Source: a virus
Taxonomy: Duplodnaviria > Caudoviricetes
IMG/VR virus record: IMGVR_UViG_3300027977_000033
Coordinates: 1,821 to 65,820 of that record
Strand: one strand, 5' to 3'
DNA: 64,000 bases
Shown here: piece after piece, positions 14,532 to 40,519 of the stretch
How the letters are laid out: every line of letters starts with the position of its first letter
Position numbering within the stretch: position 1 is the stretch's first letter
Program-made: the position numbers and the translations under genes
The notes under the pieces: generated by a model
The model's input: only the letters and a program-made list of their open reading frames with translations
What the model was told of the DNA's origin: nothing
The model's database searches: none

Positions 14532-17500
14532 ATGGCCGTGATCAACGAGGAGGATCTGCAAGAGTACCTCGAAGAACAACGGGCACTTGCCGAAGCCCCC
14601 GAAGAATTTGAAGCTCCAGTAGCTCAAGTTCAAGAAGCTCCAGCCCAAGAGTTTACAAACTGGGATTCTTACACCTCGGATCCTGAATATCAGACCCTCG
14701 ATTCATCGGAAAAGCAGGAGTTGTACGACCGGTGGCGTCAATACGCCACAAATTACTTAGCATCAACGGGGAACCTGACCACCAAAGACGATCTAGAATT
14801 TACCAAAAGCTATTTTTCGGGCATTGCGGAACAAGAAGGGCTCAAAGGAGCAGACTACAAACCACCAAATTATGCCGAACAGTTGATTCAACAGGGTCAG
14901 TCTGGTTACAGGTCGCTGGAATCTGGTGTTGCGGGATACGGTGCATTGATTGGTGTAGCAGATACCGAGAGCGCAGCCAATGCGATCGCAGAAAGGAACA
15001 GACAAGAACAGGATAAATACATCAGCCCTGAATTCCAAGAGTACGGCAATAAACAACTTGGATTTTTTGGGGCGGTAAAAGAAATCGTAACGAACCCGTT
15101 TGATTTGGCGCTGCCGTTTCTAGCGCAAAGCATGGGATCGAATCTCCCAGCCTTGGCCAGTTCACTTGGCATTGCTGGAGTAGGTGGGGCGGTTGCTGGG
15201 CCAGCCGGTGCAGCAAGTGCTGGCTTGTATTCCAGCGCTATCTTGGGTGGGGCAACTGATGCTTTGGTAACCGTTGATCAGTTGATCAAGGAAGAAGTCC
15301 AAAAGCGTGGGCTTAACCCGACGGATCCGCAAGCGGTTGCTTCAGTATTAGCTGATCCAGAGTTTAAGACGTATGCCATCAAGTACGCCAATGCCCGTGG
15401 CTTGGCGATCGGAGCGACGGGGCTGGCTGCGTTTGGGCTCGGGACTATTTTAGCTACCCCTGCTCGAGAGATTGCCAAGGCCGGCGTACGGGGAATTGCC
15501 GGAGAGGTCGGGAAACAAATTGGAATTCAAGTTGTCTCAGAACCGGTTGGTGAAGTTGCAGCCCAAGCCGGAGCTCAAGTAGCGACTGGCCAACCGATTG
15601 ATATTAAGGGGCGAGAGGTAGCCGAAGAATTAGTTGTTGGCTTACCCATGTCCGGAGTTGAGGCTGGGGTCCTGACCTACAAAAACTTGGTCGAGAACAA
15701 TGCGCCGGCCACCGCCGACGAAGTTCTAGTTAATCAAGTCTCTGACTTTCGGAAGCAGGAGTTGGAACGGGCGTTGGCTAGAAATGAAGTGGATAAGTTT
15801 TATGGGGTTCTTTCGATAGGGGAGAAAGCAAAAACTCTTGGTCTTGCCCCTAACGCCGTGCTTACGGGCGAACAAAGTATTTTTGACACCCTAACCACGG
15901 AAGAAAAACAAGCGGTACAAGTTGCTTTCGAAGCCACGAAACAAAGAGTTCAACCTCCGGTGCTTGCTCGGGAAGAAGTCCCAGCGCAAGCAGGGGAACA
16001 ACCTCCGGTTTTAAAGGAACCTGTCGCAAAGGTTGCGGCTGAAGTGCCTCCGGTTTTAGAGCCTCAAGTTACGGCAGAAGAAGCCGAGGCAGAGGCGGCC
16101 AAAGCGTTTGAGCAGGCGTTGGAGACGACGCCTCCCGCTCCCGAAGTGGCGGTTACACCGCAAGAAGCCGTCAGAGAAGCCGGGGCAGAGGCTGGTGTTC
16201 CGGCTCCTGCGCCAGAGACGACGGCTCCGATCTCGGAAGCGGTTCAAGTTCCACTTGAGCAAGTAGCTCCGGCGTCAGCTCAGGCTGTTGCTGAGACCCC
16301 AGCTCCTGCCCCAGTACCTGAAACACCAGCAACCCAAGAAAAAGATTTGGAAGAAATAATTTCAGACGCAGCCGACAGTCAAAGGGGGAAGCCAGAATCA
16401 GTGATGATGGATGTGACTATGAAACTTAAAGACGAAACAGCGTCATCTCCATCATTAATAGATCTATTAGAACATGTTGGAGATCTCTCTAATAGAGCAC
16501 AAAAAAGAAATGCTATTACGAATGTCGAAGAAAAGATAAGAAAAGTTGAAAGGTACGGCCAAGACGGAAGAGACACATTAGAGAAAGAGATTGAACAGGG
16601 GTACCGAGACAATGCGGAGTACAGAGTACTAAAATCTATACCAGAACTGGCGGCGTTAAGGGACAGGGTTGGAGAGCCCGAAGGACCCACGTCTTTGTTT
16701 GAGGTTTACGAAAGAGTAAGGAAAGAGCACGGGTCTAAAATCGAGGCAGAGATAAAAAGATCAAAAGAGATTGCAAAGCAGGAGCTTAAAAAATACGTAG
16801 AGGCCCACGAAAAATTTAATAAACCAGTAACTAAACTGGGAAAACTCGGAAAAGACGCGGCTATTGCTTTAGGGAATCAAGACTTTAACAAATTGAGAAG
16901 TATTGTTTCCGAGATGAGAAAGTGGATAGACACTTATAATAAAGCCAATGAACAAAAGAGAGACACAATGTTCAATGAGCTAGCAGGAAAACCAACTACT
17001 GCCCCAGTAACTCAGAAACTTCCCCCTACCAAGAAACAAGTTACAGTTCTTTCTAAACTGGGGTATTTACCGGCGGACATCGAAGGGCTAGATAGGGTTC
17101 AAGCAAAAGAGATTATTGGTAATCAAACTCCGAAGACCCCAACCATTGAAGCACCGAAAGAAAAAGTCGAAGCCCCAGCCCAAGCAGGAACCCCTGCTCC
17201 CGCCGTCCCGCCAGCCCCTGTCGTCGGAGAAACCCCTGCCGCCTCGGCACAGCCACCGGCTGGAGAAGTTAGTCTACCTGTGGCACCTCCAGCGAGTGAA
17301 CCAACCACCCAGACGTCCCTCGAAGAGAGATTAGGCCAAGCGGATAAAAAACTTACAGCGCTTCTCGAAAAGCTGGGCGGGGTTCTCGGGTCGGATGTCA
17401 AACTAGACGCAGCTTCAGTTGCTGCTTTTTTCGGAGGAGTTCCAGATCAAGCCACTCAGGCTCGTATTGAATCCGTTTTAAAGCTCGTCAATCTAGGGCT

Positions 17501-20500
17501 ATCCAACGTCAAAGCGAGGTTGAAGAAAGCCAAGGCTGCCGGTCGTAATCTCGAAGAGACTTTTACTAACATTGATAAATTAGTTTTCACAAATAACTAT
17601 CAAGGGGGTGGGGGCATTTACGCCGATCCTCGTAATCCGTTTGAAGCTGGGACTCTCTACATTAACCCAGACCAATTAACGAGAGTACTCATGTCGGATC
17701 TCACGCTAAACCCAGCCGACTTTTTTGCGTCTATGCTGGAGGAAGAAGTCATTCACGCCAACCACGGTAAGGCGATGGTTCGGGCTTTTGTCCAGACTTT
17801 TCCGCCCGAGAAAAACAAAGAAGTGTACGCTTCCCCAGCGGCTACTCTGGAAGCATATATTAAATTTTACGACGCACAGAACGCAGAGATTGAGAATAGC
17901 CTGACAATCGATCAAATTAAAAATGTTGTTGGTAAGTATGCTCAGTCCTTGGGTATAGACCTAGCGGGAAAAACTAAAGAACAAATTGTTCAAGAGTTCA
18001 ACGTGGGTCGTCCGGGAAGACTAGCAGAAGAATACTTGCGGGCTTTAATTCAAGGCCGACAGCTTGGGTCTATAACAGAAGAGCAAGTTCGGGGTTACAC
18101 GACTCGGCCTATTTTAAGAATCTTGGGGGCGTTGCGTAATTGGTTTAGAGACTTGGTTGGCAAGGGAGTACAGAAAAGAAAAACTTTCGTAGATAGACAG
18201 CACGACGCTATTTTATCGGTTCTTCTTAGCTCATCCCCGACCGAACGTTTAGCGGCTCAGGGTGAGATTAACACCGCGATACCTGGGCGCATCCTTGCGT
18301 CTAGCATTGATCCGTTCGCCGAAGAACTCAACAGACTTAATAAAAACACAAACGCCAAGCTCGAAGCAGAGATTCAAAAAGAGTTTGGGCCTAGGAATAA
18401 AGAGACAGGCGAGGGAGGTCTTTGGAGAAGGACTATCATTGGGAGACTGAAGAGGTCATTCCCAGCAGTAGACCCAACTGAGGTAGAGAGCTTGGTATAC
18501 GCTTCTATTCCGGAAGCGATGGGTTCCTTTGACGAAGACAAGGGAGCTAAGTTTCCAACTTATTTATACGGAATTGCTCAGAAAAAAATCCTGAGAGAAA
18601 AATATAAAACCCTTAAAAGAAGAACTAGAGAAGTGGCGAGTTTTCAGGCTCCAGGTTTTTACAATATTCCGTTGAGTTTAAAGTCGGCGCAAGAAGCAGA
18701 TATTGAAGCGGAAGCAGAAGCTCCAATTGAATCCGAAGATCTAACTCCTGAGCAACGTGCCGAAAAACTCTTGGCTAGAGCGCCCAGCCTTGAAAAAGAA
18801 CTTGACGCACAAGAAAAAGTTTCTCCGGTTTTGGAAGAAAAAGCAGTTGCTGCGGCCTATGAGCCAGAAACTGGCAGAACAAATTTGGCGGAAGAAGGAC
18901 AGGAACTTGAAGAACTTACCCTAGCCGATGGCGAGGCGATAAGCTCTTTGGACGCAGTATCCGCTGAAAAACGCACAGCTTACCTTGAGGCCCAGCTAGG
19001 TGAAGCGGGCAAGTTGCTGGCCACCGCGGCCAAAGCACTGGGGTTAACTAAGATTGAAACAGAAGTCTTGGCGTACGCCGCGGACCCAGATGGTTCTATT
19101 CTAACGCGAAAAGAAATCACCGATAAATACGGATTAACCAACGACCAGTTTACGAACATGAGGGATGACGTTCTTACTCGCATGCGCGAACAGCTTGGCC
19201 GTGCCGGTGTGACAAGGACGGCTGATGTTCTGGCTTCCTCCATCGATCCAACCCGAAGTCAAGCGTTAGCTCGCGCCAAGACTACCCTGCCGGCGGACGT
19301 TGCTGCTGAGATCGATACTATCATTCAAGATCCTTTTACCGATGCGGGACTTACTAAATTAGCTAAAGACTTTGTTAAAGCCAACTCGCCTAACGGCGAT
19401 GTCATGCATGCCAAGCGTATTCTGGATGGGCGACCGAATATGAAAGAGAGAGAAAGGTTAGCCGTCTTAGGCGTAATTGGGGTTACTCTAAGAAAACGAG
19501 TATCTAAAGTAAACGAAGAAATTAAAAAGAAAGGCAGGAGCCCAGAAAGATTGGCGCTTAAAAACTACTTAGACACAAACCTCAGAGAAGTTTTTATTAA
19601 GAGCCAGCAAATCAGTTCAGAATTTGGTCAAAACTTAAGGTCAGCCCGCACAAACAACGCTCTGTACCTCCCTTACCATTGGGAGGGACTTTATACTGGG
19701 CCTATAGGTAGCCAACAAGAAGAACTTCTTCGAACCAAACAAGAAGTGATAAAGGCCAGAGCTGAAATAGAAAGACTTTTGGACATCATTAGTGGGGACG
19801 CTGTCGATGGGATTTACATTAAACCGCCCGAATCTCCAGATGACGATGCCAAAATTGGGGTCGGAGACAAACCAATTAAAACCCCTCTTCCAGAGGGAGA
19901 AAACTTTTACGAACTTTTATCTCTATTCGGAGACATGAGCCCTACAGAGGGGGAAACTTTTAGCGACTACCTGCAAAGGCTTGGGGTTAACTATGATGAT
20001 GTAGTTTCAAACTTAGAAGGCATGAAGGCAGCCTCGGTTTCGCCCGCAGCGGTTACAAAAATTCTACCGGAGGGTTTAAAAAACTTATCTGCTAAAGAGG
20101 CGATCCGCAAGTTGGTTGCTATCGATAAAAACTTTTTTGGTAAGCTGGTCGCACTCCGAATTAAATCAGGTGGCGGGACGACTGAAGCTCAGGTTGCGGA
20201 AGGGCTGGATCGCAAAAAGTTGGACGTGAAAGACAGGCCAGCAGAACTTCAGACCGTATTTGATTTCTTCGGTTCGACGGAGAGTACGAAACCAACCTCG
20301 GAAGCCCCAATTGAAAAAGACATCCTACCCCCGTTGGTTCGTTTGGCTAAATACGCAGCTGATACAATTACAGATCGGGTCATGCGCTCGCTCGGGGCAG
20401 ATAAAGCAAAGATGGAAAAGGGGTCCTTTGAAAAGTTGGAGCGTCAAGTTCGAGCTCTAGTTAATGCTCAATTCAGACAAGAGACCAACCCAATCCAAGC

Positions 20501-23243
20501 CAGCAAAGAAGACACGAGATCTGTTGAACAGCGATTGCTGGACATGGTACAACGAATCCAACTTGCCGAGACCGTCTTTAACGATGTAAAGGCTAAGTTG
20601 CAGGCGGAAATAATCGCAGATAATCGAGCTAAAGAACTAAAGGCTGAAACCCAACTGTCAACAAAAGAGAGGGCGGATCTAGAAGCAAGGGCCAATCGTT
20701 TGTTTAACCCGAACGCTATTAATAGCCTTGATAGTTTACTGCGTAAGACAATTGATTTTAAGGCGGAGGCTCGTAAACACATGAGCCAAAGGGGGGCGTC
20801 GGTCGAGTCTCTTACTGAAGTGATAAAGACTAAGTTTCCAGGTTTCACGCCGGCTCAAGCTGAATCTCTAGGAAAATTTTTAAGTTCTCGATACGCAAGA
20901 ATTCTTAAAGAAAGCGGAGAGAGACAGCTCTTGAATATTACCCGAAGGCTTGGGGAAAAGGCAACAGCTATGCCCAAGGGGAAAATGCAACAGCTTTTAG
21001 AACTTATAAATCTTGGGGCGTTTGACGAAGAAAAATTCTATAACGCTATTGCAGAACGCTATGATATCCCAGACTGGGACCCAGCAATAGCGGAAGAGAT
21101 TCGTCGACAAGCAGATGTTCTTCAAAACTTACCCTTGGGTTCCGATCAACAAGCCACGGCAACCTTTCAACTTCAAGCTTACATTGCACAAAAAGTAAAC
21201 AAACAAAAAAGGGGATGGGCTAGATTAGGTCGCAATCTTGATGTTGCCGCCTCTGTTTGGAAAGCTGGAGTTTTATCTGGGCCCCCCACTCAAATTGTTA
21301 ATTTAGGGGCCACTCACTTGAACGTATTGTTTGAACTTTTAGCTGAAGCGAATGCGTATAAAAAACTGGCGAAGACGAAAGGAAAAGATGCGAAGTTTGG
21401 TGATTTCTTTAAGACGGGTCTGATCGCTTACTGGGACACAGTAGGCCGAGTAGGGGTTGAGCAAGCTAGTGACGCTTTCTCTACCGGTTTGACCAGATTT
21501 CGAAACGAAAAACAGATTGAGCTTTCTCCTTTAGAAGTTTTTAAATTCGATACGGACAAAACTTGGACCTTCAATAATTATATTGCTGCTTGGAAGATTG
21601 TCGGGCGGGCTATGGCGGGAGCGGATACCTACAACTCGGTCATTGCGAATGAAGCCAAAGCCAGAATGGCGGCTAGATATGCTTTGCTGACAGAGGGTCT
21701 GACGGCCGAAGAAGCCACTAAAAGAACGCAAGAAATTTTTGATAGGAACAGTGCCACTTCAGTTGCCTTGCAAGAGCAAGTCAACCGAGAGGAAGCTGAC
21801 GAACAGTTTGGTTCTCTTGCTGGGCTAGATCCCAAAAGCTCTGCCTATCGGTCTACGAAAAGAAATATAGAGGCGGGCAAGCGTCGCAGATTTGAACAGT
21901 TGCGGGATGAAACAATCGCCAAGGAAAGTAAACTTGGAGAAACAGGAATGCAGGCAATTCGAGACTTCACACAGAAAGCAACTTTTAACAACCGACCAGA
22001 GGGGTTGATCGGATATATTGGCGGGGAAATTGTGGGAGCACTTGCGGGGAAAGTTCCGCTACTGACCCCATTTGCTGCGTTTCCTCGGACGATCGCGAAC
22101 ATTATTAATTCTGGACTCAACTATACTCCTTACGGATATGCTCGAGCTTACGGGTTCTCTATCGGAAACATGTTTGATATAATCCGTACGGGTAATTATG
22201 CTTTCAAGGCTCCCGAACAGGGAAGCGTTGAGTTCCATAAGCTACAGGCTCAAGCCTTTTGGGGTTCTATCGTAGCGTTTACTTTGATAGGTCTTGCACT
22301 CAGAGATATAGATGAAGATTGGGACGATGCTTTCTTCGCGGTAACTGGACGAGGCCCTGCAGACGCGGAACAAAGGGAACAACTCCGAGCATCTGGCTGG
22401 ACAGAGAACACCGTTAAGTTTGGCTCGTTGCGCTTTAAACATACAGATTTCCCAGGCCTTAATACTATCTTCGGAGCGATGGCTTTGGTGTCTGACATGT
22501 ATCGATATGGCAACCTGAAAGAAGAGGACCTTGCAACTATTGCCACAACGGCGGCAATGTCTATTGGAAACTCTATCTTTGACAAGCAATTATTGAGCGG
22601 GGCAAAAACTTTATTTGAAGCAGTATCTGACCGAGGCAATTCTTCGGATAAGGCAAAACGGCTCATTCAAAGCTACACCGGTGGGTTTTTGAATCCTGGG
22701 TTTGCGAGGTGGATGACGAAAACATTTAATATTGGAGCCGACGGTATGGTGGGGGTCGTCGACTATAAAGAGCTTAACTCTACGACAGCGGGGTGGTTGA
22801 TGGGGCTTACCCCAATGGCCGTTGTAGTCGGCAAACCAGAGCTCAATCGTCTGGGAGAACCCATTCGAGAATACCCCTACACAGCAACAATGAGACGGTT
22901 TGGATTTGTGCCAGAGGTAAAAGAACACCCGGTGTTCTCCCCATTAGTGAAAGCCGGCCTGTTCGTTCCTGGCGCTAGCATTGGGCTAAAGATAAAAGAT
23001 TTTGAAAAGGGCAAGGTTGTTCAGCGCAAGATGGACCGAGAAGAGTTTTACAACTACTCTAAATATAACGGAGAATACTTGCGACGCCGGTTAACCCCGC
23101 AGAAAGCTCAAGCCTTGGCCAGACTCGCCTCGCGTAGCCCAGAGGTAGCTCAAAAAGAATTGGAGAAACTCGCCGGGGACGCTAGGGAGTATGGTAAAAA
23201 TAGGATTGAGCAGGAAATCCGGATTAAACGCCGAAGAAAATAG
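14532..23243 (+). CDS. Giant internal virion / polyvalent protein (2903 aa) with zincin-like and sigma-70-like domains
   Basis: Size and synteny of podovirus large ejection proteins; LYIN...EEVIH...EEYL zincin-like segment; FDEDKGAKFPTY (sigma region 2) and LT..E.EVL...TRKEI...YGLT (region 4). Confidence 0.8.
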   Translation: MAVINEEDLQEYLEEQRALAEAPEEFEAPVAQVQEAPAQEFTNWDSYTSDPEYQTLDSSEKQELYDRWRQYATNYLASTGNLTTKDDLEFTKSYFSGIAEQEGLKGADYKPPNYAEQLIQQGQSGYRSLESGVAGYGALIGVADTESAANAIAERNRQEQDKYISPEFQEYGNKQLGFFGAVKEIVTNPFDLALPFLAQSMGSNLPALASSLGIAGVGGAVAGPAGAASAGLYSSAILGGATDALVTVDQLIKEEVQKRGLNPTDPQAVASVLADPEFKTYAIKYANARGLAIGATGLAAFGLGTILATPAREIAKAGVRGIAGEVGKQIGIQVVSEPVGEVAAQAGAQVATGQPIDIKGREVAEELVVGLPMSGVEAGVLTYKNLVENNAPATADEVLVNQVSDFRKQELERALARNEVDKFYGVLSIGEKAKTLGLAPNAVLTGEQSIFDTLTTEEKQAVQVAFEATKQRVQPPVLAREEVPAQAGEQPPVLKEPVAKVAAEVPPVLEPQVTAEEAEAEAAKAFEQALETTPPAPEVAVTPQEAVREAGAEAGVPAPAPETTAPISEAVQVPLEQVAPASAQAVAETPAPAPVPETPATQEKDLEEIISDAADSQRGKPESVMMDVTMKLKDETASSPSLIDLLEHVGDLSNRAQKRNAITNVEEKIRKVERYGQDGRDTLEKEIEQGYRDNAEYRVLKSIPELAALRDRVGEPEGPTSLFEVYERVRKEHGSKIEAEIKRSKEIAKQELKKYVEAHEKFNKPVTKLGKLGKDAAIALGNQDFNKLRSIVSEMRKWIDTYNKANEQKRDTMFNELAGKPTTAPVTQKLPPTKKQVTVLSKLGYLPADIEGLDRVQAKEIIGNQTPKTPTIEAPKEKVEAPAQAGTPAPAVPPAPVVGETPAASAQPPAGEVSLPVAPPASEPTTQTSLEERLGQADKKLTALLEKLGGVLGSDVKLDAASVAAFFGGVPDQATQARIESVLKLVNLGLSNVKARLKKAKAAGRNLEETFTNIDKLVFTNNYQGGGGIYADPRNPFEAGTLYINPDQLTRVLMSDLTLNPADFFASMLEEEVIHANHGKAMVRAFVQTFPPEKNKEVYASPAATLEAYIKFYDAQNAEIENSLTIDQIKNVVGKYAQSLGIDLAGKTKEQIVQEFNVGRPGRLAEEYLRALIQGRQLGSITEEQVRGYTTRPILRILGALRNWFRDLVGKGVQKRKTFVDRQHDAILSVLLSSSPTERLAAQGEINTAIPGRILASSIDPFAEELNRLNKNTNAKLEAEIQKEFGPRNKETGEGGLWRRTIIGRLKRSFPAVDPTEVESLVYASIPEAMGSFDEDKGAKFPTYLYGIAQKKILREKYKTLKRRTREVASFQAPGFYNIPLSLKSAQEADIEAEAEAPIESEDLTPEQRAEKLLARAPSLEKELDAQEKVSPVLEEKAVAAAYEPETGRTNLAEEGQELEELTLADGEAISSLDAVSAEKRTAYLEAQLGEAGKLLATAAKALGLTKIETEVLAYAADPDGSILTRKEITDKYGLTNDQFTNMRDDVLTRMREQLGRAGVTRTADVLASSIDPTRSQALARAKTTLPADVAAEIDTIIQDPFTDAGLTKLAKDFVKANSPNGDVMHAKRILDGRPNMKERERLAVLGVIGVTLRKRVSKVNEEIKKKGRSPERLALKNYLDTNLREVFIKSQQISSEFGQNLRSARTNNALYLPYHWEGLYTGPIGSQQEELLRTKQEVIKARAEIERLLDIISGDAVDGIYIKPPESPDDDAKIGVGDKPIKTPLPEGENFYELLSLFGDMSPTEGETFSDYLQRLGVNYDDVVSNLEGMKAASVSPAAVTKILPEGLKNLSAKEAIRKLVAIDKNFFGKLVALRIKSGGGTTEAQVAEGLDRKKLDVKDRPAELQTVFDFFGSTESTKPTSEAPIEKDILPPLVRLAKYAADTITDRVMRSLGADKAKMEKGSFEKLERQVRALVNAQFRQETNPIQASKEDTRSVEQRLLDMVQRIQLAETVFNDVKAKLQAEIIADNRAKELKAETQLSTKERADLEARANRLFNPNAINSLDSLLRKTIDFKAEARKHMSQRGASVESLTEVIKTKFPGFTPAQAESLGKFLSSRYARILKESGERQLLNITRRLGEKATAMPKGKMQQLLELINLGAFDEEKFYNAIAERYDIPDWDPAIAEEIRRQADVLQNLPLGSDQQATATFQLQAYIAQKVNKQKRGWARLGRNLDVAASVWKAGVLSGPPTQIVNLGATHLNVLFELLAEANAYKKLAKTKGKDAKFGDFFKTGLIAYWDTVGRVGVEQASDAFSTGLTRFRNEKQIELSPLEVFKFDTDKTWTFNNYIAAWKIVGRAMAGADTYNSVIANEAKARMAARYALLTEGLTAEEATKRTQEIFDRNSATSVALQEQVNREEADEQFGSLAGLDPKSSAYRSTKRNIEAGKRRRFEQLRDETIAKESKLGETGMQAIRDFTQKATFNNRPEGLIGYIGGEIVGALAGKVPLLTPFAAFPRTIANIINSGLNYTPYGYARAYGFSIGNMFDIIRTGNYAFKAPEQGSVEFHKLQAQAFWGSIVAFTLIGLALRDIDEDWDDAFFAVTGRGPADAEQREQLRASGWTENTVKFGSLRFKHTDFPGLNTIFGAMALVSDMYRYGNLKEEDLATIATTAAMSIGNSIFDKQLLSGAKTLFEAVSDRGNSSDKAKRLIQSYTGGFLNPGFARWMTKTFNIGADGMVGVVDYKELNSTTAGWLMGLTPMAVVVGKPELNRLGEPIREYPYTATMRRFGFVPEVKEHPVFSPLVKAGLFVPGASIGLKIKDFEKGKVVQRKMDREEFYNYSKYNGEYLRRRLTPQKAQALARLASRSPEVAQKELEKLAGDAREYGKNRIEQEIRIKRRRK

Positions 23244-37599: not shown

Positions 37600-38115
37600 G
37601 TGCCCAAGAAGTTGGATATTGATTGGAAGGCCATAGAAGGTTTATACACTATGGGAATGAAACCCGATGCAATAGCCCACACATATAACCTTAACATTCA
37701 ATCACTTCGAACAAGGATTAAAAGGGGTCAATGGAAGGTTCAAAAGGATGCACTACGGGCTCAAAAAGAGGTCATAGTGACCCAAGATAGGGCTCAACTG
37801 GTTGCCAATGCTGGCACCGCCTATCAACAGAGGCTGATAAAGCATGTCGAAGCTGGGATGGGCGTCCTCGATGACAATCTCCCCACCACCCGCCCCGAAG
37901 TCTCCCAACACTTCGATGCGTTGGGTAAAGTGGATAAGATTGCGAGTCGGGCGTATGGATTAGAATCCACGGTGAACGGTGGACACTCCACAACCCTCAA
38001 TCTTAACCTTTTGCGGGTGGATGGTCAACTTGACCCCATTCACCTAAAACCTTGCACCGCAGAGACTTCCACCGAAAAGCCACAAGTGATTGATATTCAG
38101 TCAGTTGCTACTTGA
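37600..38115 (+). CDS. terS: Terminase small subunit-like HTH protein
   Basis: IDW.AI...Y..G.....IA..Y.L....LR.RIKRG.W N-terminal HTH; LDK..R.AYGL-like C-terminal motif; own promoter (TTGCAT...TATACT). Confidence 0.7.
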   Translation: MPKKLDIDWKAIEGLYTMGMKPDAIAHTYNLNIQSLRTRIKRGQWKVQKDALRAQKEVIVTQDRAQLVANAGTAYQQRLIKHVEAGMGVLDDNLPTTRPEVSQHFDALGKVDKIASRAYGLESTVNGGHSTTLNLNLLRVDGQLDPIHLKPCTAETSTEKPQVIDIQSVAT

Positions 38116-38147
38116 CTTGATACATTACCTATTGTGCGACATTTGGG

Positions 38148-38333
38148 TTAGCTCTTCTTTTCTATGTAAAGTCGGCCATCCTCCATCCAGAGGATATCGC
38201 CGTTCTCCAAAGTTTTTCCCCGCCGTATGATGACGGACTTCGGGCGGTAGGTGTAGGGTTTGCGAACCCGATACATACCGCACTGCCGTATGCCGTCCAT
38301 CGTGTTGCGTTTCATTCCAGTTGAATAGAACAT
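38148..38333 (-). CDS. Small hypothetical protein
   Basis: ORF with GCAGGT RBS-like sequence. Confidence 0.35.
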   Translation of the reverse strand: MFYSTGMKRNTMDGIRQCGMYRVRKPYTYRPKSVIIRRGKTLENGDILWMEDGRLYIEKKS

Positions 38334-38412
38334 ACTACCTGCTTTCTCCGCCTGTTAGCGGTGGCGAGGCAGGTGATGAGCCTGCCCCGCTGACCGATAA
38401 CCCTTGGTAGGA

Positions 38413-38853
38413 TTAGCTATTGAGTTCGATAGCGGGTGCCTGATTGGCCTTAATGATGGCCAGCACCTGATCGAGCTTGTCTTCAGGCAAGGATGCAAGG
38501 GCTTCCAGCATCTTGCTCTGATCGTTCTTCTTCTCCACCTTTTCCCTGGGGATTTTCGGAACGGAGAAGCGGATAACGCCCGACTTGAGCGAACCATCCG
38601 CCTTGCTTGTAGTCTCCACAATCTTCTCCAATACCAATCCGCTAGCGCGGAACTTCTCCAGCCCTGCAACTGCCTTTACATTCTCGGCGTTGCAATGGCG
38701 AGAGAACTCGGCACGATGCTCGGGTGAACCATAGACCAAGCCGTAGTGTTCAGAGTAACCTCTGAAATCCAATACCTTCTCGGTATTGGCGGTTGATGTT
38801 TTGTATTCACGGACGGACACCGCCCGATTGTTCTGTATGTTGATTAGTTTCAT
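38413..38853 (-). CDS. First gene of the early operon, hypothetical protein
   Basis: Strong TAAGGAG RBS; follows a long non-coding leader. Confidence 0.65.
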   Translation of the reverse strand: MKLINIQNNRAVSVREYKTSTANTEKVLDFRGYSEHYGLVYGSPEHRAEFSRHCNAENVKAVAGLEKFRASGLVLEKIVETTSKADGSLKSGVIRFSVPKIPREKVEKKNDQSKMLEALASLPEDKLDQVLAIIKANQAPAIELNS

Positions 38854-38869
38854 TTTCTATTCTCCTTAT

Positions 38870-39440
38870 TATGGGGTTGATTCTGCCCACCCTATCGGGC
38901 GAACAGATGACAACCCCCCACGAGTTAAGGCCTTCCCCGTTAGGGGTAAGAATCCTGCTCGCAAGGGGTTGTGGAGACTACCGAATCTTTGGAAGATATT
39001 ATGCTGGCCAAGCACCAAAGACTCTATTTGAATCGCATCCCGTTGGATGATCTTACTTGCCCACGCACCCTAGGTGACTTATGCACACGGACGCTCCTAC
39101 TCTCGACGAGGGAAAAGCCTAGGCCATCGCAAATGATGAGCGATGCCCTGCCCGCTTGATCGTGGGGCAATTTGGCCGTGGTAGCGGTTGCCCGCTTGAT
39201 TAGGCTCAAATCCTGAAGGCGTGAGAGCGAATTCTTGCAAGATGGGAGGGAGCACCCTTGTAGCATCTACTGAACCCTTGCGGGTAGCATCGGTGGCCGT
39301 TTGCTTTAGAGAGCGAGTTGCCTCGCCCATCCTATTCACCCATCGGAGGGAATCGCCTTGAAGGCACATTTCACCTAGTCACCTAGGTCATTCCTACTTC
39401 AAGCAGTCCAACCTCACGCTGATTTTCCAAAGAACTGAAA
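38870..39440 (-). ncRNA. Candidate large structured RNA or leader (~570 nt)
   Basis: No convincing ORF; on the - strand three GCAA-tetraloop hairpins, a CCCC-UAAC-GGGG hairpin and long-range complementary segments. Confidence 0.5.
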
Positions 39441-39487
39441 GATTGTGGGCAATAAGTTGAGGGAGATTCTTTGCCTAGTGTGCCTGG

Positions 39488-39980
39488 GTAAGTTGTTGAT
39501 TATTAAGGACTTACAAGGATAGTTAAGTGTAAGCCGTTGAAGGTCAAGGGGTTAGAGGGACTCCCTATCTCCACACCCCCGCTGGCGACCAGGAAGCTAT
39601 GATATATGGATGTGAAAAATTTAATTTATTTTTATCCCCTTTGGGCTAAAAACCCACCCTATTACACCCAAAACCGTAAAAACAAGCCCCAGGGTGGATT
39701 ATCTTGATCCACCCTAATATAATCAACCCACCCCCTAAGTCGTTGATTTTCTTCTGTAGTGGTGTATATGGTGGATTATATTTATAATATATAGTAGTGT
39801 ATAATAAAATATAAGTATGGGCACAGCCCCATTTGTTATATAGGTAGCTCTTTCAAAAAGGCCCTTTTAATCCACCATATACACCACGTCTCAAGTAAAT
39901 CAACGACTTACGTCGAAAAACCTAATCCACCCTCTTTTTCTTAATCCACCCCTTTTTGACCCTTGACTATCAAGGACTTA
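39488..39980. repeat. Cluster of TAAGTnnTTGA-N3-TCAAnnACTTA palindromic motifs
   Basis: Copies at 39488-39514, 39530-39554 and 39956-39980, half-sites at 39736-39749 and 39897-39910, one more copy at 38083-38107. Confidence 0.75.
39650..39955. other. Probable replication origin
   Basis: Perfect 20-bp inverted repeat (39759-39778 / 39868-39887) flanking a very AT-rich core; multiple ATCCACC iterons; downstream of the primase-helicase operon. Confidence 0.65.
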
Positions 39981-40186
39981 CGTTTTCGTCTTTTCGCCTT
40001 TGTAACTTCCTTAGGCTCAACAGCTTTCCAGATTTTGCAGTCTACATCCAGCTTTACGGACTCCTCCATGCAGAACCTATATATCTTCCATGACCAAGGA
40101 TCCCATCCGAACCATGGAGTCCTAGATGTAAGGTCTCCGATCCAATAGTATAGATATGACACTGCGAACTGGAATCTCTTGATCAC
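39941..40186 (-). CDS. Small hypothetical protein
   Basis: Motif LS..LYYWIGD..SR...W..Y...M..S..LD...IW seen in small phage proteins. Confidence 0.5.
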   Translation of the reverse strand: MIKRFQFAVSYLYYWIGDLTSRTPWFGWDPWSWKIYRFCMEESVKLDVDCKIWKAVEPKEVTKAKRRKRKSLIVKGQKGVD

Positions 40187-40239
40187 TTTTTCTTACATAC
40201 TCCTATCTGCATGCAATTCAAAGGCTTTAGCTTTGTTTT

Positions 40240-40519
40240 GCAAATTAGAAGGAAAACAGATGCTAGGTTTTTTACGCCTAGACCTAGGATTGAAGGGCAC
40301 AGACCGATTCATACTTGGTTAATAGCCTCCATTATCTGTCACTTTTTGACAGCTCCTCGCAAATTAGAAGGTGTTGTCACAAATTCTACATAGTTTTTGT
40401 GACGCTCGACATGCATACTTTTTCGCAAAAAGGCGACATATAACAGACCGATGTGCATAGATTGTCGGTTTACAGCGACATGACACAGACCGATTCATAC
40501 TTGGTTCACTGCCTCCATT
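40240..40519. repeat. Short direct and inverted repeat patch
   Basis: 36-bp repeat at 40298-40333 / 40484-40519 (33/36 identical); 13-bp repeat at 40240 / 40359. Confidence 0.7.

Follow-up and report, generated by a model that had tools for sequence, protein, structure and literature searches.

A multi-domain structured RNA outside the Rfam families, conserved at the head of a small-gene operon in lake phages

We describe a new, non-coding, multi-domain structured RNA that falls outside the families of Rfam and is encoded ahead of a small-gene operon in the genome of a phage (Caudoviricetes). Its core module is shown to be shared by lake phages of one small lineage, a narrow range as known so far, with eight distinct sequences. 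From its build and distribution we infer, with confidence that is evenly balanced, that the module is a stable RNA, complete in itself, which is produced at the operon's head and works independently.

A conserved block in a non-coding region

The window, by which we mean the whole 64,000-nt stretch of DNA that was analysed, comprises bases 1821-65820 of a 65.8-kb virus record that has no end repeats and an estimated completeness of 92%; the DNA runs that contain this stretch are lake or freshwater metagenomes. Within a long run of minus-strand genes lies 1.09 kb without credible open reading frames (38854-39940), where no ORF of 100 aa or more occurs on either strand and the longest minus-strand ORFs measure 90, 80, and 49 aa. 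The genes upstream on that strand code for a helicase, an exonuclease, DNA polymerase A, a DUF5906 primase-helicase, and a UPF0489 protein; those downstream comprise numerous small ORFs, an rIIA-like gene, and one of the GP88 family. Given these replication genes upstream on the same strand, the name of early operon that the first-pass annotation had given to the downstream genes is unproven. No tRNA genes were found in the window, a blastn search with the window at a distant setting gave no match in the GenBank phage collection, and no phage RNA polymerase family was found among the window ORFs scanned. One 2903-aa ORF (14532-23243, plus strand) has a weak "internal virion protein" match, limited to residues 2505-2714, and no Pfam family; the idea that this protein is an N4-type virion RNA polymerase was rejected for want of a PDB relative or family support.

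An exact-word scan of a metagenome collection returned ten stretches, eight of which hold the full module at 85-97% identity over 457-469 nt, while the remaining two (L079 and L084) have only a 22-mer in common with the window. The window and the eight metagenomic loci make up alignment A4, nine sequences of which eight are distinct, one locus being the contig of L046; over one stretch of 65 nt the window and L046 do not differ. Four exact patterns run against viral contigs recovered as their sole related record one that was already known, the other stretches being chance matches. Among genome contigs, one pattern had no matches and another had 34, none of them a family member by R1, a covariance model of domain 2 (best E = 0.42). 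At E<=10, R1 itself matched 9 of 24 sources, all of them already-known members. The range of the family given here is a lower bound, because the scans require exact words.

Consensus fold and covariation

Folded as a single sequence, the minus strand of 38854-39480 reaches -236.9 kcal/mol and does better than its shuffles (z = -3.83, 0 of 20 as good), a comparison by which the first-pass annotation had proposed to judge the candidate; the plus strand of the same region has z = -2.16, with 1 of 20 shuffles as good. The single-sequence fold alone is suggestive and short of decisive, and the comparative support is much stronger. RNAalifold applied to A4 gave a consensus of 139 pairs in 22 helices (Table 1). 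In the eight distinct sequences, 1109 of 1112 paired cells hold a pair (99.7%, a figure that is flattered because the consensus and the count share one alignment), a share that drops to 37-45% once the 3' partners are slid along by 1-3 columns. Both sides have changed in 16 of the 139 pairs, compared with 0-2 in six slid controls, and this excess is less affected by the shared alignment, though not immune to it. On four of five measures, pairing, compensatory counts, and the covariation score included, none of 500 shuffles reached the observed values.

Table 1 Features of the RNA locus and its surroundings, in window coordinates
Feature	Position	Strand	Remarks
Core structured RNA module, ~450-460 nt	38975..39438	-	Block conserved in all 9 sequences
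Helix 1, UCUUUGG/CCAAAGA, 7 bp	39433-39427 with 38992-38986	-	May close the module; invariant
Domain 1	39219..39419	-	Closed by helix 2, GCGUGAGG/UCUCACGC; helices 3-11
Domain 2	39059..39212	-	Helices 12-19; most conserved part, mean column identity 92%
Three short 3' hairpins, helices 20-22	39004..39049	-	One-sided changes only
Hairpin A, long and imperfect	38910..38972	-	ACAACCCC ... GGGGUUGU, apex CCCC-UAAC-GGGG
Hairpin B, 12-bp stem	38881..38908	-	Loop GAUA/GCUA/GCGU; ~20 nt 5' of the Shine-Dalgarno site
Shine-Dalgarno AAGGAG and ATG of first downstream gene	38851..38867	-	Gene of 146 aa, 38853-38413
Upstream non-coding zone, presumed promoter	39439..39679	-	Conserved A/T-rich block and palindrome TAGGGAGTCCC
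Repeat array GGTGGATTA/TAATCCACC	39680..39960		Context for the RNA, outside the RNA itself

At least one compensatory pair occurs in 10 of the 22 helices, for example CUUGAAG/CUUCAAG replaced by CUGGUCAG/CUGACUAG, CAUCGC/GCGAUG by CGUUGU/ACAACG, and GUAG/CUAC by GUGG/CCAC. The remaining 12, among them the closing helix 1 and most of domain 2, are invariant or show one-sided changes only and so are neither supported nor refuted by the alignment. In domain 1, compensatory changes affect 1-4 pairs in each of helices 3, 4, 5, 6, 7, 8, and 10, and the loops change sequence but stay GNRA (GUGA/GCGA, GCAA/GAAA/GUAA, and GCAA/GAAA), with a few non-GNRA variants (AAAG, GAAG, and UCAC). Domain 2 contains an invariant GCAA hairpin and both copies of a repeated 12-mer, AUCAAGCGGGCA; its compensatory pairs are three in helix 16 and one in helix 19. 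For the three short hairpins at the 3' side, an alternative can be formed in the shape of a 10-bp local hairpin, GAGUCUUUGG/CCAAAGAUUC, in competition with helix 1, and the one-sided nature of the changes there leaves the alternatives indistinguishable. A scan for additional covarying helices or pseudoknots was too noisy, because most columns are invariant.

Much of what had been seen in the single sequence is recovered by this comparison. The tetraloop hairpins of the first-pass annotation are in place on the minus strand (GCGAG-GCAA-CTCGC, 39326-39313; ACCC-GCAA-GGGT, 39285-39274; AGCGG-GCAA-CCGCT, 39196-39183; CCCC-TAAC-GGGG, 38946-38935), and the three with GCAA loops are kept across the homologs. 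The proposed CATCGC/GCGATG pairing gains three compensatory pairs in the homolog alignment, and the ACAACCCC/GGGGTTGT arms, which exist in the sequence, are likewise kept in the comparison. A long-range pairing between 11-nt arms, CCTAGGTGACT/AGTCACCTAGG (~39070 and ~39378), fared differently: the arms exist, and the pairing was rejected, with 7 of 88 cells broken over 5 of its 11 pairs, no compensatory pair, and uncompensated changes in both arms in L087 and L081. Its 5' arm belongs to a local GNRA hairpin (helix 4) with two compensatory pairs. The 12-mer reported as duplicated, ATCAAGCGGGCA, has exactly two copies (39149-39160 and 39189-39200), both invariant in 9 of 9 sequences. On paper, each copy can pair with CCGCU or GUCCGU, so that two mutually exclusive folds can be drawn.

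The term "unclassified" has also stood, as Rfam 15 holds no matching family. Across the whole window there was no match at gathering scores in a test that took in GOLLD, ROOL, OLE, raiA, group I and II introns, RNase P, tmRNA, 6S, and riboswitches. Relaxing the threshold to E<=10 gave seven weak matches over 38400-40000 and three over 38850-39460, none to a plausible family, at 12.7-26.7 bits against gathering scores of 39-230.

Strand and coding potential

G-U pairs account for 120 of the 1112 paired cells (10.8%); on the other strand these would be A-C, and just 990 of the 1112 cells would pair there. On these grounds the aligned sequences indicate that the RNA strand is the minus strand. 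Each of the six frames carries 3-10 stops in every one of the nine sequences, in keeping with the earlier judgement, made on the window sequence, that no credible ORF is present. By codon position, the 105 variable columns number 37/38/30, with no 3-base periodicity, and the ten gap columns represent seven separate indels, five of them of one base. Conservation among the homologs is thus of the RNA type instead of the codon type, and the comparison shows a module that is, by these signs, non-coding.

These counts also bear on the suggestion that the locus is not an RNA gene at all, and either encodes a small protein or works at the DNA level through its inverted repeats. What could be cited for it is the 90-aa ORF at 39369-39097 in the window, together with the fact that RNA libraries can contain DNA. 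This ORF was rejected as a gene, since stops and single-base indels interrupt its frame in the homologs; none of the sequences has an open frame, codon periodicity is missing, and the G-U cells, 10.8% of those paired, would be A-C on the other strand. We regard the suggestion as scarcely credible.

Presence in RNA libraries

On the absence of transcription, which the first-pass annotation had counted as fatal to a structured RNA, the data do not refute the proposal: the sequence is present in RNA libraries in the form of assembled contigs, which are no proof of transcription and cannot show strand, ends, or level. Six RNA libraries contain a small share of the stretch's words, and contigs lie on 38981-39423 in all four of the metatranscriptome runs compared, where DNA in the libraries is a possible source. 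These four runs carry four study codes, three of which share year and habitat and may be one campaign. One RNA contig, of 444 nt, is essentially equal to the module; another, of 496 nt, runs 53 nt beyond the module's 3' border into a hairpin A of the L082 type. In two study codes the contigs break off at 39423 without a loose end. This hints weakly at a 5' end there, and an assembly break at the polymorphic position 39426 (A in the window, T in the eight others) would account for it just as well. No contigs from the RNA runs lie on 38000-38980, save for 53 nt unlike the window, or on 39424-40500; given that these are contigs and that strains diverge, this is not evidence of absence.

A low-depth RNA contig (run X19, record 1) has several substitutions and small indels across 39182-39198. 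Such variation in the otherwise invariant AGCGG-GCAA-CCGCU could come from a remoter member of the family or from a mistake in assembly.

The module among its relatives

The module is the sole segment that aligns full-length in all eight loci. Similarity to the homologs starts and stops at ~39438 and ~38975, and in five of the eight loci both flanks are different or much less alike with the module still shared. Nor is it tied to the gene that follows: in L088 the first downstream gene differs and the module still stands in front of it, and L049 is without the module yet keeps that gene. The neighbouring primase is encoded on 16 viral contigs, of which just one, L046, has the RNA. Unrelated sequence takes the module's place in L044 and L045, whose primase is 97% identical to that of the window, and in L049, whose contig is also L002 and whose primase is 93% identical. 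In such module-less close relatives, unrelated inserts of ~370 and ~550 nt sit between the same flanks; in L045 the common 5' flank continues to 4 bases before the module and then gives way to unrelated sequence.

The possibility that the leaders of L045, L049, and L051 are diverged copies of the module was rejected: nhmmer found no match to the module in these three relatives, BLAST over whole records found it in none of four related records (three close, one at 62%), and model R1 was likewise negative. Because all three methods fail to find the module in close relatives, it is best described, from its distribution among the sequences, as an exchangeable unit and not a fixed part of the operon.

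The replacing inserts (L045 11821-12185 and L049 11560-12100) are non-coding and contain GNRA-type hairpins. They fold weakly better than their shuffles (z = -2.46 and -1.93), part of which is contributed by hairpins A and B, and they may be other leader RNAs.

Sharp borders and patchy presence among close relatives are also what a self-splicing intron, or another mobile ribozyme within a non-coding transcript, would display, and by eye a pairing GUAGUU/GGACUAC with a terminal U-G can be drawn, the 5' flank ending in U and the module in G. This pairing fails in 2 of the 9 sequences and would cross helix 2. An empty site was not seen, the relatives having other sequence in place of a clean join; the joint was not found in the RNA contigs, the flanks are non-coding, and Rfam 15 gave no group I, group II, or ribozyme match even at E<=10. 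We therefore consider an intron very unlikely.

Elements on either side of the module

Two hairpins separate the module from the first gene. The counterparts of hairpin A in other loci have a like shape in other sequence (CUCUCCUAC/GUAGGGGAG and CUCUCCCGUC/GGCGGGGGAG, compared by eye and uncounted). Hairpin B is kept in every leader type, including those of the core-less relatives L045 and L049, and in its own alignment (A5) 5 of 15 pairs have changed on both sides. A scan with a hairpin-B pattern returned 35 stretches, of which the sole related one was L015, a relative's contig already known. Hairpin B looks to us like an element in its own right, which might cap the 5' end of the mRNA once processing has taken place. 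Homologs of the first downstream gene, with motifs REYKxST and EHRxEFSRxC, occupy this place in eight of nine loci, the exception being L088, which has another gene; searches gave no family, structure, or atlas lead for it, and a pattern search for relatives was also empty. The stretch from the module to the ATG that opens the small-gene operon revealed no site resembling a terminator.

On the other side, the presumed promoter zone is conserved among the window, L002, and L046. A single sigma-70-like match (39526-39499) is not above chance for the region. The promoter zones of the window, L002/L049, L045, and L081 share the conserved palindrome TAGGGAGTCCC (39557-39567); it was rejected as a recurring phage promoter, being single-copy in the window, where near matches number 8 against 15 expected.

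Beyond this zone, GGTGGATTA/TAATCCACC occurs in at least six copies in both orientations and the region includes a 43-nt inverted repeat (39736-39778 / 39868-39910, 88% complementary); together they make up an iteron or operator array. At the same place in a relative whose primase is 62% identical lie AGTGGATTA/TAATCCACT copies (L051 11100-11310), and the contig of one relative terminates inside the array. Two of the repeat copies form a terminator-like 11-bp hairpin with a T run (39717-39680, minus strand), which would end the transcript of the replication genes just before the promoter zone of the RNA.

With the module directly downstream of this array and adjoining the genes for DNA polymerase A, primase-helicase, helicase, and exonuclease, one could picture a replication-linked RNA, that is, a transcript leaving an iteron-bearing origin that primes or activates DNA replication in the style of a plasmid pre-primer. 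Close relatives keep the array at 88-97% identity, yet two of them (G003 and G001) replace the module with unrelated sequence, which is hard to square with an essential origin RNA. An RNA-DNA hybrid motif was not seen, and the array may equally be an operator array. A role of this kind seems unlikely to us, if less so than an intron.

A free RNA or a leader

The reading that we prefer is that of a free RNA. The module would be transcribed as the first part of the small-gene operon's transcript and would live on as a stable RNA in its own right, probably set free by a processing step close to hairpin A, after which hairpin B would cap the rest of the mRNA. Rather than adjusting the next gene, the freed RNA would engage a partner from host or phage by means of its tertiary structure, and would in this resemble the ornate large phage RNAs GOLLD and ROOL. 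We favour such a molecule because the module greatly exceeds its surroundings in complexity and conservation, because it is bounded by a helix of its own, and because it moves as a unit and is indifferent to the gene that follows.

The main rival is a cis-acting 5' leader: the whole structure, of ~570 nt, would remain part of the mRNA and govern how stable the operon's message is, how it is translated, or whether it is read through, antitermination included. Its position fits, and other long inserts occur at the same place. The module does lie where a 5' leader would, on the same strand, ~120 nt before the ribosome-binding site and its ATG, with no terminator-like site in between, and the 496-nt RNA contig crosses its 3' border and continues into hairpin A; both points speak against a free RNA. 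The other long non-coding inserts that relatives carry at this exact place would fit a set of interchangeable leaders, as would the conservation of hairpin B before the ribosome-binding site across all leader types. Against this, 22 helices and a domain at 92% identity far exceed the needs of known leaders, the module is independent of the gene behind it (L088) and optional among relatives, and no resemblance to it could be detected in the replacing inserts. Nor does the operon downstream have more terminator-like sites than expected (12 against 13.5 +/- 3.7 in shuffles). Of the first-pass proposal of a large non-coding RNA or an antitermination leader, the first half holds, and the second finds no support in this last count. 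A cis-acting leader remains a tenable explanation, to which we give a minority share of our belief.

Should the module be a free RNA, one can go further, tentatively and with more doubt than belief, to a new class of ornate RNA, namely an exchangeable, gene-like module that is cut from an operon leader and works as an RNA machine in trans. Such a machine could be a ribozyme, an RNA-only assembly of the ROOL/GOLLD type, or a decoy for a host protein, and the duplicated 12-mer could let the RNA switch between two folds.

To our knowledge, few RNA classes longer than 400 nt with complex conserved folds are known, and each so far is a ribozyme, a ribonucleoprotein core, an RNA-only assembly, or an open puzzle. 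The module comes with a ready alignment, a covariation-supported fold, and signs of expression in nature, and sister phages with other sequence at the same place amount to a natural experiment; it would offer a manageable new example in which to study the role of large phage RNAs. Its present weight is limited by the narrow known range, a single lake-phage lineage.

Comparison with known systems

In the literature surveyed, mainly titles and listings, no description of such an RNA was found. The early leader of T7 is a long non-coding stretch after the promoters, with RNase III processing hairpins before the first early gene, and the module likewise belongs to a long non-coding stretch with hairpins ahead of a first gene. 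As far as we know, the T7 leader is not a conserved multi-domain fold; moreover, RNase III-type processing is known there, while at hairpin A processing is only presumed.

The put element of HK022 is a cis-acting antiterminator RNA of two stem-loops and ~70 nt. It resembles the module as a phage RNA element on the coding strand between a promoter zone and an operon. The module differs in being ~450 nt long with 22 helices, ahead of an operon where terminator-like sites are not enriched. Measured against put, as we know its architecture, it has neither the compact two-stem-loop build nor signs of terminator read-through.

GOLLD and ROOL are ornate large RNAs of phages and prophages, represented in Rfam and located near tRNAs. 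The module resembles them in its length of several hundred nucleotides, its many covarying helices and GNRA-type loops, and in being non-coding, phage-borne, and first seen in environmental sequence; it differs in having no Rfam match, no tRNA genes nearby, and a position directly before a ribosome-binding site. GOLLD, ROOL, and OLE are reported to form homo-oligomeric complexes (PMC12286853). A 2023 survey of IMG/VR (the DNAVirus_X set) worked on the same kind of data, the intergenic regions of IMG/VR contigs, and reports covariation-predicted intergenic RNA candidates of 29-151 bases (PMC10690425). At those lengths, at most a fragment of the far longer module could be among them.
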